The notes below the pieces were generated by a model. That model did not search any database and was not told the origin of the DNA. It worked only from the letters and a program-made list of their open reading frames with translations. A stretch of 64,000 nucleotides of DNA from Camelus ferus (lineage: Eukaryota), in assembly GCF_009834535.1 (NCBI RefSeq), contig NC_045696.1, forward strand, positions 20,896,001 to 20,960,000, in the 5' to 3' direction. The position numbers and the translations under genes were made by a program. Below are positions 5,801-36,392 of the stretch, piece by piece (position 1 is the stretch's first letter; each line of letters opens with the position of its first letter).

Positions 5801-5975
5801 CTTGCCAGACAAATACAGGACACTCAGTTAGATTTGAATTCTAGGTAAACAATGTATATTATTTTAGCAATACAATATTTGGATCATACTTATACTAAAT
5901 AAATTTTTCATGGCTTTACTGAAATCAAATTTAACTAGGAGACCTATGTGTTTGTTTGTTAAATCTGGCAACCAT
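5801..5975. mobile_element. MER53-like palindromic hAT MITE
   Basis: ttgccaga...aaatacaggacactcagttagatttgaatt...aaatttaactagg...aaatctggcaacc; self-complementary ends. Confidence 0.75.
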
Positions 5976-6011
5976 GATTATGAAAAAATAACCCACCTAT
6001 GAAATATTTTT

Positions 6012-6205
6012 TTTATTTATTCAGTCAGTACTTATTTATTGAGCACCTAGTGTGTGGCAGTAATACTAATGTACATGCAGGTTTCAGTGAATAAGAGTGG
6101 ATTCAATTCTTCAGAATGCTTTCCATGTTGTAGAAGAGAAAGACAAGTAAATGGGTGCCTCTGAACAGCACGGTAAGTATTGCATTAGGTATTCATGGAA
6201 ACATG
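6012..6205 (-). mobile_element. L2 3' end fragment
   Basis: atttattcagtcag...atttattgagcacctagtgtgtggcag, the typical L2 3' terminus in antisense. Confidence 0.65.
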
Positions 6206-6692
6206 GAAGCTTTTCCTCCCCTATTTGTATTGCCCTTTATGCTGGTAATTGTGAATGTCTTTTAATTGGAATGGGAATTTCATTTTATAGCCAAAGTCAC
6301 TGCATGGTATATAATGTAAAATAGATCATCAATTAGGACAAAGAATTTACCAAATATATTTCATACTGTGTAGAAGAAAATAATTATTGCATTTTAAATT
6401 TTACATCTTTGCAGCTACTAGTATTAGTACAGACTTTTTAACCACCTGAGGCCTATTAATTGGACAGATACTGTACAATATGCTTTGCTTTATTGGTTCT
6501 GATTATAGGAGAGAAAACTACAATATGACATCATTTTAAAATCTTATGAATGCAGAGGTCATCTTCAATTTCTTCAAAATGACACCCATTATATCTTTGA
6601 ATTGAGTATTAACTCAGAGGATACAAAATCTCCACATGTTGCTTTTTCCCTTAACTATAATTTAGATTTAATTTCTGCATTTCATTTTTACT
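6206..6692. repeat. Long inverted repeat, left arm (487 bp)
   Basis: Aligns end to end with the reverse complement of 7348-7841; manual alignment gives ~51 substitutions and 5 small indels. Confidence 0.97.
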
Positions 6693-7347
6693 ACCAGTAG
6701 AAGAGGGTTTTATTTGGCTTATTACCATGAGTCTCAGATTAAGTTAATTATGAGTTACAATTTTCATATTCCTTTAGTTAATTATATACTATTTAAACAG
6801 CTGTCACCATATGTTTTTTGGTTACTTTTTCACTAACATGTGGGAAATTAATAATTTCCACTTGTGGCACAAAAATATAATGTGAGAGATGTATGTCTTT
6901 GATTATAGCTCATAGCTATCTAATGAAAGACCTTTGAATATATGCCACTGTTTCTTATACCTGAAATTGTACCAGTGTCTGAATTAAAATATGAGGAGGA
7001 GGCATAAATCCATGATCACACTCATTGCTAATAATAGTAGCAAATAGTTTATTGTTGTATTAAATTGGAGGTATTCAATTTCTTTCCTAGTTTAACCTAT
7101 CAACATGTAAAATATAAATAAATTTCTCATCTTACTTCATTTTAGGAATAAAACATGGCTTTTTCTTACATTCAGTAAATTTGCTAATTTGCAGCAGAAA
7201 GGGAAAACTCTTTAATGTGACTGTCTCAGGTGAATAACTGTAGTACCATTAGTGACCAAATTACTGGTGAAACATGGTTTCATTAATTTTTTTTTTCCTT
7301 TCAGTGAAGACTGATAAAATAGGGCTAAAAATTGACATGCAAAAGGG

Positions 7348-7841
7348 AGTGAAAATGAAATGGAGAAATTAAATCTGAATTATAGTTAAGGGAAAAGCAA
7401 TGTGTGGAGATTTTCTGTCCTCTGGTTTAATACTCAACTCAAAGATAATGATATAACTAGTGTCATTTTGAGGAAATTGAAGATGACCTCTGCATTCATA
7501 AGATTTTAAAATGACGTCATATTGCAGTTTCTCTGCTATAATCAGAATCAGTAAGGTAAAGTATGTTGTACAGTATTTGTTCAATTAATAGACCTCAGGT
7601 GGTTAAAAAGTCTGTACTAATACTAGTAGTTGCAAGGGTGTAAAATTCAAAACGCAATGATTATTTTCTTCTACATAGTATGAAATAATATTTGGTAATT
7701 TCTTTGTCCTAACTGATGAACTGTTTTGCATTATATATACTAAATAGTGACTGTAGCTATAAAATGAAATTCCCATTCCAATTACAAGATATTCATGATC
7801 ACCAGCATAAAGGGCAATGCAAATAGAGGAGGAAAAGCTTC
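7348..7841. repeat. Long inverted repeat, right arm (494 bp)
   Basis: Reverse complement of 6206-6692 (e.g. cctcaggtggttaaaaagtctgtactaatactagtag vs ctactagtattagtacagactttttaaccacctgagg). Confidence 0.97.
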
Positions 7842-9730
7842 AGTTCGCTAATTCATCAGTATAATTAGCAACATGCTTACACTGTCTCTATCAAGTGAAC
7901 TGGGATGAACATATCTCATTGGTCTTGAGTTGGAGTTACCTAATATGAGGTCACAGTTGCCAATAGTCACTATCCTCAATCCTTGCACATTAGAAAGTTA
8001 AATTAGTTAAATCACAAGTCCTCAGTATTGTCTGAAAACAGTATTTCTCAGATTCTTAAGTAGAGGAAATGTCCTAGGAATTTAAAAGGATGCAGAAAAG
8101 TCTGAGTAAATAAATGTAAAAACATTTAGATTCTGTATAGATTTAATAAAACTATTTAGTTTGATAGAAGGGAAAATATGTGGCTAATAAAATTGTCAAG
8201 ATGAATTTTATGTTCTTTATGGCTTAGACCATAAAGGAAAAGCATTAAAGTTTCTTTTGTGTCTTATCTTAAAGCAAAGTCATAATTTATACAGAACATT
8301 TATAGTAGTTAAATATGTCTTCTGTTTAAGAATACAGTCTCACTCCAGCACAGACACAGGATTAAGCCAAGGAAATATATTCAGTTACCCAAACTTTTTG
8401 GATGGTTTCTTAAAATTGCTGATTATATTAAATTTTGCTCTAAAAGAATAGTGATTTTTTTTAAATGTTTATAAACATCTCTCTAGACATCAGTTCATTT
8501 AGTACCATTTTACAAAACCCCGAACAAAACACTATTAGGGATGAAATCTTTCAAATAAAGATCATACATACAAAAATGTATTCCATATACACTATTATTG
8601 CTCTCTTCTGGATATTGAACCATCACCATCACACTGTGAAATAAATGGGTTCCTGCCTCCTCCTGCGCCTATTTCAGTGACTTTATTTAGTCAAGTAATC
8701 ATATGAAATCCAACGTGATTTTCTGTGTGGGAGATAGGAAAGCAGAGCACAAAAGTGAGATACGGTGGAGCAGAAGAAGAACAAGAGGGAAGGAGCACAA
8801 AGAAAGCATGAAGTCATTTAGTGAGAAGGAGTATGTCCAATCCACAAGAACATTTATGAAATAAACAGAGACATCCCAAACTTCGCAGTGTGAGAAGCTG
8901 TTATTGGTATTGATTTTAGTTTACAAGTTCTTTCTCTCTCTTTCTCATTTAAGAAGGTAACATAAAATCCATAAATAATATGCATCCAGAGAGTCAGTTT
9001 CACTAGAAGGATCCGGAGAACGGCAGCACATTAATCTTGTGACCGTGCATCGGACCACTCAGAGATACAAAATGTAGAAGGGCCTCTCGACGCTCTAAAG
9101 ACATCAGGCTCGTGTTTCTGACCTCACAGCCCCCCGGAGAAATATTTAGTGATGGTAGTGGAAACCCAAAATGTCCATGTACAATCACACGTACATATAC
9201 TAAAGCAAGCACACACAGATATACGCATGAGTAGGCACATAAATGTTACTTGAAATTGTGGGCAGATTAAATATTCACAAAATTAATAGTAACGATTTAG
9301 CCACTACCACTCTCTTTGGTTTGAACCACTATATTCTGGCTTCCTGCTTTATTGTCAATGTGTCTCCTGTGACATCTGTGGCTACTAATACTGCTCTTTG
9401 AGGCATGACCAACAGTGGGAAAGACTCTTGATACATAGCACGCAGCATAGGGACACAGATAACCGAAGGAAAGCATGCCTTTCATAGCATAAGTCCTTTC
9501 AGGTTCAATGAGCACAAAGTAAAAGATTCTTTTCAACTCTTTGCAATAGCACAAATCACCGACAACCTTCAAGTATTCCCTTAGCTTACGATAATAAAAT
9601 AAACAGAAAAGGGAGAAGGAACAGGAAGTGTAAAGGCGACTGCTTTCTGATAAGAATATACATTGTAAAGACAGCCTGGGGAGGACCAAAATCAGAAGGC
9701 CTGGCACCCAGTCACTGAACCAGAAGCCAC

Positions 9731-20120: not shown

Positions 20121-21368
20121 TTTTTAATTGCAGTATAATCGATCTACAATGTTTGGGGTGAACAGCAAAGTGATTCATGTATGTGTGTGTGTGTATATTC
20201 TTCTTCAGATTCTTTTCCATTATAGGTTATTACAAGATACTGACTATAGTTCCCTGCGCTCTACAGTAGGTCTTTGCTGTTTATCTATTATATATGTAGT
20301 AGTGTGTATACATTAATTCCAAATTCCTAATTTATCTTTCCCTCACCTTTCCCCTTTGGTAACCGTAAGTTTGTCTTCTGTCTGTGAGTCTATTTCTGTT
20401 CTGTAAATAAATTCATCTGTAACAATTTTTAGATTTCACATATAAGTGATATCATATGGTATTTGTCTTTCTCTGATTTACTTCACTTAGTCTGATAATC
20501 TCTAGGTCCATCCATGTTGATGCAAATGGCATTATTTTATTCTCATTTATGGCTGTGTAATATATCATTGTATGTGTATATATATATCACATCTACTTTA
20601 TCCAGTTATCAGTCTTTGGACATTTAGGCTGTTTCCATGTCTTGGCTATTGTAAATAGTGCTGCTAAGAATACTGGGGTGCATGTATTTATTCCAATTAG
20701 AGGTTTTGTCTTTTCTGAATATATATATACCCAGGAATGGGATTGTTGGATCATATGGTAGCTCTATTTTTTATTTTTTGAGAAACCACCATACTGATTT
20801 CTACAGTGGCTACATCAGTTTACACCACCAACAGTGTGAGAGGGTTCCCTTTTCTCCACACCCTCTCCAGCATTTATTATTTGTTGACTTTTTGATGCTG
20901 GCCATTCTGCCTGGTGTGAGGTGATACCTCATTGTAGCTTTGATTTGCATTTCTCTGATAATTAGTGATGTTGAGCATCTTTTCATGTGCCTACTGGCCA
21001 TCTCTATGTCTTCTCTGAAGAAATGTCTATTTAGGTCTTCTGCCCATTTTTTGATTGGGTCGTTTGTTTTTTAGATATTGAGCTGTATAAACTGTTTGCC
21101 TATTTTGGAAATTAAGCTCTTGCTGGTCATATCATTCACAAATATTTTCTCCAATTCCATAGATTTTTCTGTTTTGTTTATGGTTTACTTTGCTTCAAAA
21201 GCTTTAAAGTTTCATTAGGTCCCATTTGTTTATTTTTGCTTTTGTCTCCATTGTTCTAGGAGATAGACACCCCCCACCCACCCAAATTGCTGTGACTTAC
21301 ATCAAAAAGTGTTCTGCCTATGTTTTTCTCTAGGTGTTTTATAATATTCCATCTTACAAGTGTAACAT
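20121..21368 (-). mobile_element. Young lineage L1, 5'-truncated (ORF2 end and 3' UTR)
   Basis: Minus ORF 20810-21001 encodes the L1 ORF2 C-terminal motifs [16 protein letters not shown]...[16 protein letters not shown]; perfect 15-bp TSD CCTCTATTATTTCTT at 20106-20120 and 21369-21383. Confidence 0.95.
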
Positions 21369-28229: not shown

Positions 28230-29378
28230 TCAATTTTTTTCAGCTTTGTTGAGGCATAATTTACAAACAAAATTATAAAATACTTAAATTGTACAACATG
28301 GTGATGTATAACTTTTTAATTTTACTTTTTTTTTTCTTGGTGAGAACATTTAAGTTCTAGTCTCTTAGCAAATTTTAATTATACATTATAATGTTACTAT
28401 CTATAGTCACCATGTTATACATTAGCTCTTTAGAACTTATTTATCTTACAACTGAAGGTTTGCAATTACCAGCCCCTCCCTCTTTTCCCCAGCCTCTTGC
28501 CCCTCCCAATCACCATTCTAGTCCATGTTTTTATGAGTTTGTTTTTTTTTAGATTACACACATGAGTAAGATCATATAGTATTTGTCTTTCTCCCTCTGG
28601 CTTATTTCACTTAGCATAATGCCTTCAGGTAAAACCATGTTGTCACAGGTGACAAGATTTCCTACTTTTTTAAGGCTGAATAATTTTCCATTTTATATAC
28701 ACACACACACACCCCCATATTTTCTTTATCCAGTTATCCATCAGTGAACTCTTAGATTGTTACCATACTCTAGCTATTGTGAATAATGCTGCACTGAGTA
28801 TGGGAGTATATATATCCTTTCGAGATAGAGATTTCATTTCCTTTGGTTATATACCCAGAAGTGGAATTGCTGGATCATATCATAGTTCTATTTTTAATTA
28901 ACTGAAGGACCACCATAATGTTTTCCTTAGTGGCTATACCAGTTTACATTCCTATCAACAGTGTACAAAGGATCCCTTTTCTTCACATCCTCACCAGTAT
29001 TCGTTACCCCTTTTCTTTATTATAATAGCCATTCTAACAGGTGTGAAGTGATAACCTCAATGTGGGTTTGATTTGCGTTCTCCTGATAACTGGTGATGTT
29101 GAGCACCTTTTCATGTACCTCTTGGTCACTTGTATATCTTCTTTGGAAAAATGGCTATTGATGTGCTTTTTCTGTTTTTAATTGGGTTACTTGGGGTTTT
29201 GGTTTTGGTTTTACTTTTTTTTTTTTTTTTTTTTTGCTATTGAGTTGTTTAAGTTCCATATATAGTTTGGATATTAATCCTTTTTCAGATATGTGGTTTG
29301 CAAATATTTTCTCACATTCCATAGGTTGCCTTTTCATTTTGTTGATGGTTTCCTTTGTTGAGGTTTTTTTGTTTGATG
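28230..29378 (-). mobile_element. L1MA8/9-type fragment (ORF2 end and 3' UTR)
   Basis: Minus ORF 29155-29337 (KRQPMECEKIFANHISEKGLISKLY) is L1 ORF2; typical L1MA 3' UTR follows. Confidence 0.92.
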
Positions 29379-34979: not shown

Positions 34980-36392
34980 TCAATTAATCTATGACAACAG
35001 AGACAAGAATATACACTGGAGAAAAGATAGTCTCTTCAATAAGTGGTGCTGGGAAAACTGGACAACTACATGTAAAAGAATAAAATCAGAACATTCTCTA
35101 ACACCTTATGCAAAAATAAACTCAAAATGGATTAAAGACCTAAATGTAGGACTGAATACTCTAAAACTCCTAGAGGAAAACATAGGCAGAACACTCTTTG
35201 ACATAAATTGCAGCAACTTTTTTTTTCAAACCAGCTCCTGGAGTAATGGAAGTAAAAGCAAAAATAAACAAATGGGACCTAATTAAACTTAAAAGCTTTT
35301 GCACAGCAAAGTAAACCACAAACAAAAGGAAAAGACAACCTATAGAATGAGAAAATATTTGCAAATTATGAGACCAAAAAGGGATTAATTTCCAAAGTAT
35401 ACCAACAGCTCATACAGCTAAATATCTAAACAACAATCAACCCAAACAAAAATTGGGCAGAAGACCTAAATAGACATTTAGATCCAAATAAGGCATCCAG
35501 CTGGCCAACAGGCACATGAAAAGATGCTCAACATCACTAATTACTAGAGAAATCAAATAATCAAAATTACAATGAGTTATCACCTCACACCAGTCAGGTT
35601 GACCGTCATCAAAAAGTCTACAAATAATGAATGCTGGAGAAAAAGGAAACCTACACTGTTGGTGGGAACGTAAATTGGTGCAGCCACTATGGAGGACAGT
35701 ATCAAGGTTCCTTAAAAAACTAAAAATAGACTTACCATATGACCCAGAAATCCTACTCCCTATATATCTGGAGAAAACTCTAATTCAAAAAGATGCATGC
35801 ACCCTGGTGTTCTTAGCAGCATTATTTACAACAGCCAAGACCTGGAAGCAACTTAAATGTTCATCAACAGATGAATGGATAAAGAGGTGGTATATATATA
35901 TTATATTGCTATATTACTATATTAGCAATATATAGAATATAACTTAGCCATTAAAAACAATGAAATAATGCCATTTTCAGCAACATAGATAGACCTAGGG
36001 ATTATCATATTAAGTGAAGTAAGTCAGACAAAGACAAATGTCACGTGATATCACTTGTATGTGGAATCTGAAAAAAAAAAAAAAAAGATACAAACGAACT
36101 TATTTATAAACCAGAAATAGGCTCACAGACATAGAAAACAAACTTACGGTTACCAAAGGAGAAAGGAGGCATGGGGAGGGGGACAGATAAATCAGGAATT
36201 TGGGATTAATATATGCACACTACTATATATAAAATAGATAAATAGCAAGGACCTAGTACACAGCATGGGGAACTATCTTGTAATAACGGATAGTGGAAAA
36301 GAATCTGAGAAAGAATATATATGTGAATCACTTTGCTGTATACTTGAAACTAACACAACATTATAAATCAACTATACTTTAATAAGAAAAAA
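34980..36392 (+). mobile_element. Young lineage L1 (ORF2 C-terminal part, 3' UTR, A tail)
   Basis: ORF 34969-35286 QLIYD...[15 protein letters not shown]...[16 protein letters not shown]; same 3' UTR family as 20121-21368. Confidence 0.95.

Follow-up and report, generated by a model that had tools for sequence, protein, structure and literature searches.

A single-copy inverted duplication of about 490 bp in Camelus ferus, probably a neutral relic, with a nominal excess of G-U-compatible differences between its arms

Introduction

Long inverted repeats are very common in vertebrates: LIRBase lists 4,590,178 of them in 208 vertebrate genomes, with arms longer than 400 nt, matches of at least 80%, indels of at most 10% and a loop of at most 100 kb as its listing criteria (PMC8728187, in the portion of that source used here). 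For rice, the same portion attributes a large share of such repeats to adjacent transposons on opposite strands (PMC8728187). The locus described here consists instead of single-copy sequence with a short loop, a form which presumably makes up a small minority of long inverted repeats.

Inverted SINE pairs, for example inverted Alus, are substrates of ADAR and MDA5, and the hairpins of inverted pseudogenes in mouse oocytes belong to the hairpin endo-siRNA loci. If transcribed, the present locus would share with inverted SINE pairs an intramolecular duplex of a few hundred bp with scattered mismatches; however, its arms are neither SINEs nor members of any repeat family. The hpRNAs and other hairpin endo-siRNA loci, such as those of Drosophila (PMC10292708), are also long inverted repeats with a duplex of hundreds of bp on one strand, and they arise from a parent gene, which is also their target, their defining mark being Dicer-dependent reads of 21-22 nt. 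The locus, in contrast, has no genomic relative.

Described short template switches involve tens of bases and events of the ODIRA type kilobases and more, whereas the locus has a 490-bp arm and a 649-bp spacer. Template switching during replication has been described to produce reverse-complement copies (PMC8794818, PMC5453318), and the template-switch and fold-back duplications treated in the parts of the literature drawn on here (PMC8794818, PMC5453318, PMC10766183) resemble the locus in that a single event copies unique sequence from nearby as its reverse complement, the ends are sharp and a target-site duplication is missing. The locus is a further example of a small inverted duplication, or long inverted repeat, as already known from other genomes. 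Its structure, copy number, divergence and surroundings are reported below.

Materials and Methods

The window is the whole stretch of DNA analysed, 64,000 nucleotides of contig NC_045696.1. The control region for strand asymmetry included the window and 100 kb on each side (264 kb), from which non-overlapping pairs were taken by self-BLAST. For inverted copies, G or T in the left copy against A or C in the reverse-complemented right copy reflects A>G together with C>T on the + strand; T>C and G>A fall into the opposite class. A stretch was considered CpG-island-like with G+C of at least 0.5 and an observed/expected CpG of at least 0.6. For the run assemblies, the letters per run were read as contig totals, a reading we infer from the DNA rows, whose values match the genome size.

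Results

Structure of the inverted repeat

Gapped local alignment gives two inverted arms that are reverse complements of each other, separated by a spacer:

6206..6695, no strand assigned, left arm of the inverted duplication (490 bp, 30% G+C), aligning to the reverse complement of 7345-7841
6696..7344, no strand assigned, spacer, the loop of a hypothetical hairpin (649 bp, 29.6% G+C, single copy)
7345..7841, no strand assigned, right arm of the inverted duplication (497 bp, 31% G+C)

The arm pair has a BLAST E-value of 2e-174, well above chance, and the 64-kb window holds no second pair at this level of identity. The arms agree in 436 of 488 aligned bases (89.3%), or in 436 of all 499 columns (87.4%), with 11 gap columns in five events, and the right arm has insertions of 2 and 6 bases relative to the left. 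The repeat search returned six collinear pieces with 86-92% complementarity, all of which the gapped alignment merges into one pair. By the LIRBase definition this is a long inverted repeat, every listing value lying within the limits (arms of 490 and 497 nt, 87.4% matches, gaps in 11 of 499 columns and a loop of 649 nt; PMC8728187, in the portion used). A reading made earlier from the sequence alone had placed the arms at 6206-6692 and 7348-7841 around a 655-bp spacer, with about 89% identity by hand; these limits stand after a shift of 3 bases at each inner end, as does the identity. The two perfect runs that it had singled out, 37 bp at 6415-6451 and 42 bp at 6531-6572, are bounded by differences at 6414 and 6452 and at 6530 and 6573, and the helix lengths agree with them.

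Inverted duplications can come from chimeric long reads, which would make the repeat an artefact of assembly. Against this, the arms are 89% identical and not near 100%, and a unique spacer lies between them. Furthermore, 14 run assemblies contain at least half of the sampled words, and four that are not marked as a possible source (X1, X2 and X5 of study P1 and X13 of study P5, from organisms A and C) contain 0.98-0.99 of them. The inverted repeat is not an assembly artefact, an explanation to which we assign next to no probability.

Copy number and ends of the arms

A search of the animal's own 2.09-Gb genome with the left arm gave two candidates, both scored, which are the two arms alone, and a search with the spacer gave a single candidate, the spacer itself. 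The flanks each match only themselves, except for a 45-bp ancient repeat core at 6015-6060. The positive control was an inverted pair of transposon origin lying 36 kb upstream, for which the first look yielded 9611 candidates, 40 of them scored at 82-85% identity; the search is therefore able to detect repeat families. The arms are unique sequence and belong to no transposon family; the earlier remark that no TE could be recognised in them now has two of two genomic places behind it, set against the thousands of candidates of the control. No target-site duplication had been seen either, and a comparison of the 20 bases flanking each side agrees, as they have nothing in common.

The repeat ends sharply at all four limits, where lenient alignments are no better than shuffles. 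The outer flanks have no continuation of the repeat (score 10, with shuffles averaging 11.9), and the spacer ends have no inverted similarity above shuffled controls (score 15, with shuffles averaging 14.3). The single genomic occurrence, the sharp ends and the lack of a target-site duplication, together with the chance-like perfect runs described below, point to a one-off inverted duplication without a transposon.

DNA transposons with long terminal inverted repeats have the same architecture, two long inverted ends enclosing a short core, and the locus could accordingly be read as the relic of a single insertion of such an element, with terminal inverted repeats of about 490 bp. However, a family active while the arms were identical should have left copies of similar divergence, which a search of this kind detects, and there is no further copy in 2.09 Gb. 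The target-site duplication is missing, and Pfam gives no transposase-like ORF among the 150 longest of the 238 ORFs of at least 55 aa in the window, although a spacer of 649 bp would be too short for a transposase in any case. A relic of this type is thus very unlikely, since neither a family nor a target-site duplication was found, nor a transposase remnant among the 150 ORFs scanned.

Two repeats in the surroundings are recorded in their own right. The stretch at 6015-6060 in the left flank matches two further genomic places over 45 bp at 87-89% and resembles what we take to be the core of an ancient mammalian-wide SINE; it ends about 150 bp before the left arm and is uninformative on which arm is the original. 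L011:105-581 and L011:4194-4668 form an inverted pair of repeat copies of about 480 bp, 76% identical, with a 3.6-kb spacer. Their family has thousands of genomic copies, and the pair is an ordinary transposon-made long inverted repeat with a G-U to A-C ratio of 24:25.

Divergence between the arms

The arms differ by 52 substitutions, 41 transitions and 11 transversions, and two of the 52 are CpG-linked. On the + strand, 28 of the transitions (16 T/C and 12 G/A) are G-U compatible and 13 (8 A/G and 5 C/T) are A-C mismatches, a 28:13 split with a two-sided binomial p=0.0275. The earlier count by hand had reached about 41 transitions, about 28 and about 13 in the two classes and p~0.03, all of which the alignment reproduces, with 11 transversions in place of about 10. 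It had also described all eight differences in one short interval as G-U compatible, and this is correct:

6463..6496, + strand, cluster of eight consecutive G-U-type differences, with partner positions 7548-7581

A run of eight has a permutation p=0.10, given 28 G-U-type sites among 52 differences. Compared with equal thirds, the G-U, A-C and transversion classes (28/13/11) have a chi-square p=0.007, and compared with the neutral transition fraction of two thirds the locus has p=0.077, which is not significant. The wobble skew is nominal, resting on 41 sites, and is too small to carry the claim of a hairpin RNA. The sequence-only reading had proposed that pairing of the + strand has been preserved, a proposal for which the basis is one nominal test (p=0.028).

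The mismatches are scattered as by chance. When 57 interruptions are placed at random, the longest perfect run reaches at least 42 in 23% of trials, and the probability that the second reaches at least 37 is 0.067. Since these run lengths are what random placement predicts, they give no support for gene conversion between the arms, which was rejected; homogenisation by intrastrand conversion, offered earlier as the alternative to preserved pairing, is left with perfect runs (37 and 42 bp) no longer than chance.

With 42 bp as the longest stretch of identity between the arms, flipping of the spacer by NAHR, which was also considered, appears unlikely.

The 5' neighbour of G at the 28 G-U-type sites, tallied by eye, is T in 18, A in 6, G in 4 and C in 0. 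The tally was not counted as evidence, since A>G changes of the ordinary germline kind prefer this 5' context too.

Regional control for strand asymmetry

Strand-asymmetric mutation, whether linked to transcription or to replication, should appear in other nearby inverted pairs. The pairs closest to the locus are formed by three old L1 fragments in the window, two of them inverted relative to the third and with a mutual identity of 65-75% (BLAST):

20162..21358, old L1 fragment
28546..29360, old L1 fragment
35145..36339, old L1 fragment

As asymmetry controls, the pairs of these fragments are unbiased, with 59:52 and 51:53. Over the whole 264 kb, eight other inverted pairs sum to 279:276, with no bias of the + strand, and three direct pairs to 102:101. 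The 28:13 of the locus differs from the 279:276 of the controls in Fisher's test (p=0.034), a comparison with pairs that are older (65-76% identity), are transposon copies, have noisier alignments and provide no like-for-like neutral spectrum; compared with the nearest single inverted L1 pair (59:52), the difference is not significant (p=0.10). With the same controls, the G-U-type share of all differences is 28 of 52 (54%) at the locus against 279 of 897 (31%), and there are 3.7 transitions per transversion against 1.6. In the window, G+T make up a fraction of 0.503, and in the 20-kb bins over 264 kb one of 0.486-0.532, with inconsistent sign. Given the unbiased controls and these flat skews, the wobble skew is unexplained by regional mutational asymmetry.

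This result bears on a mutational explanation of the skew, in which the + strand would be single-stranded more often, as the non-template strand or as the lagging-strand template, and both arms would carry an excess of A>G and C>T of the deamination type on that strand, with a fold that has no function. The low number of CpG-linked differences is in its favour, and under an assumed asymmetry of 1.2:1 the 28 of 41 have a one-sided p=0.052. To our knowledge, however, the strand asymmetries in the literature are smaller than the 2.15:1 of the locus, and neither the eight inverted pairs nor the G+T fractions of the region follow the expected direction. The direction of the skew itself agrees with the A>G excess on the non-transcribed strand of mammals (Green et al. 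2003, as cited in PMC12458470), and transcription would not be needed, since transcription- and replication-linked mutational asymmetries are both described and are mutually correlated (PMC12458470, in the part of that source used). A real but mutational skew is, on balance, improbable. The caveat attached to the sequence-only reading, that a transcription-associated A>G bias would give the same direction, has no regional support, and its corollary, that even a mutational cause would point to transcription of the + strand, is too narrow, as replication asymmetry yields the same pattern.

Predicted fold-back RNA

If transcribed, RNA of the + strand would fold into an imperfect duplex of about 490 bp, as predicted by RNAfold:

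6206..7841, + strand, hypothetical fold-back RNA, in which 464 of 488 aligned positions pair when G-U is counted

The predicted minimum free energy of the 1636-nt RNA is -809.5 kcal/mol for the + strand, with 464 arm-to-arm pairs, and -727.3 kcal/mol for the - strand, with 443. Folding of both strands had been proposed along with the sequence-only reading, and the + strand fold is indeed the more stable, by 82 kcal/mol. Taking G-U as paired gives 27 helices on the + strand, of which the longest uninterrupted ones measure 56, 55 and 55 bp, and 42 helices on the - strand. A long duplex on one strand, as in hpRNAs, is thus present in the prediction (464 pairs, + strand).

These features could be expected of a long hairpin RNA gene, transcribed from the + strand, with a duplex of about 490 bp under selection that tolerates G-U pairs and purges A-C mismatches and transversions; the duplex would be a substrate of ADAR, a substrate of Dicer (endo-siRNA) or a ligand of dsRNA sensors. 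In addition to the stability of the + strand fold and its long helices, the 28:13 split (p=0.028) is not explained by regional asymmetry, and transversions (11 of 52) and A-C mismatches (13 of 52) are relatively few (equal thirds, p=0.007). The split, however, comes from 41 sites only and does not differ significantly from the nearest inverted L1 pair, and canonical RNAi triggered by long dsRNA has been described as constrained in mammals, with mouse oocytes as the exception (PMC11239679, PMC3245926, in the parts drawn on). The expression and gene context described next weigh further on this explanation.

Expression, gene context and possible targets

Parts of the stretch are present in the contigs of RNA libraries. 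The shares of sampled words in six RNA or RNA-like run assemblies are 0.37, 0.26, 0.29, 0.18, 0.15 and 0.12, and the shares expected for the same six from total letters over genome size are 0.41, 0.40, 0.42, 0.43, 0.10 and 0.12. The locus is therefore not enriched above random coverage in the contigs of these six libraries, at the level of word shares. Shares of 0.26-0.37 were rejected as a hint of expression, as the RNA rows would cover 0.40-0.43 of such a genome; the shares appear to be background and give no sign of expression.

The window has 34% G+C and an observed/expected CpG of 0.15, and no CpG-island-like stretch of 300 bp was found in its 64 kb, so that it has no promoter-like CpG island. 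The DNA is mammalian, and some of its ORFs are fragments of L1 ORF2. None of the 150 scanned ORFs (of 238 of at least 55 aa), including three within the arms, reaches the Pfam cut-off, and Pfam returned two sub-threshold chance hits. A search of 5900-8200 with Rfam at E-values up to 1 gave one chance match, to a cyanobacterial sRNA model (E=0.078). At the Rfam gathering threshold, the whole window has a single match, a tRNA-like element at 44772-44843 on the - strand (33.7 bits against a cut-off of 29), which is probably the head of a tRNA-derived SINE and not a working tRNA gene.

Within the 264 kb, a single stretch, L009:6700-7150, is CpG-island-like; it lies upstream, about 49 kb from the inverted repeat and about 43 kb before the window begins. 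The CpG-rich portion of this stretch occurs once in the genome and has an L1 fragment next to it, and the stretch may be a candidate promoter for some unannotated transcript.

In 2.09 Gb, the left arm matches just the two arms, and no extended trans target or parent gene was found in this search, whose scope lies above matches of about 21 nt. The idea of trans targets, raised in the sequence-only reading, is thus not borne out for extended ones. As there is no second arm-like place in the genome, the hpRNA model of a hairpin aimed at its parent gene is inapplicable. When two stretches conserved in both arms were scanned for as exact patterns in metagenome contigs, each gave 0 matching stretches.

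With the missing CpG island, RNA-library shares at the background expectation and arms that resemble no other genomic place, a long hairpin RNA gene under selection is unlikely. The fuller proposal is a unique-sequence mammalian hairpin RNA gene, born in one inverted duplication and transcribed from the + strand, in which pairing has been selected for tens of millions of years and which serves as an endogenous source of dsRNA for ADAR, Dicer or innate sensors without an extended trans target; we give it little credence.

Discussion

The locus is probably a neutral relic, left behind by template switching or by fold-back repair. In a single replication or repair error, a unique, non-coding and AT-rich stretch of about 490 bp would have been copied in reverse orientation 649 bp away, by a template switch to the complementary strand or by fold-back priming after a break. 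Since then the copies would have diverged at about the neutral rate. The long spacer would prevent cruciform extrusion of the DNA and thereby let the repeat persist. Sampling noise on 41 sites would most likely account for the surplus of + strand differences compatible with G-U, and any read-through RNA of the + strand would fold into a duplex as a by-product, with no selected function.

Several observations are in agreement with neutrality. The five indel events per 52 substitutions are a ratio that is ordinary in neutral mammalian DNA, the scatter of mismatches is chance-like (P=0.23 for the longest run of at least 42; p=0.10 for the G-U run), and a gene is not indicated by a CpG island in the window, by Pfam among the 150 ORFs scanned or by Rfam at the locus. 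Against it, the 28:13 split is unmatched by the 279:276 of the controls (Fisher p=0.034), the G-U share is 54% compared with their 31%, and the three classes depart from equal thirds (p=0.007). The divergence of the arms is K2P = 0.117, and with mammalian rates of 1 to 2.2e-9 per site per year the duplication would be roughly 27-59 million years old.

Should the neutral reading hold, the locus is a well-delimited small inverted duplication of an ordinary sort, which may be used as a dated marker and as an example of how a perfect long hairpin template is born in one step. Counting such differences in inverted pairs costs little, controls locally for strand-asymmetric mutation and could be applied to other loci of this kind. 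If the skew is real, the locus would represent a rare long endogenous mammalian dsRNA that is not built from transposons, and it would bear on the load faced by ADAR editing and on the self-tolerance of dsRNA sensors.
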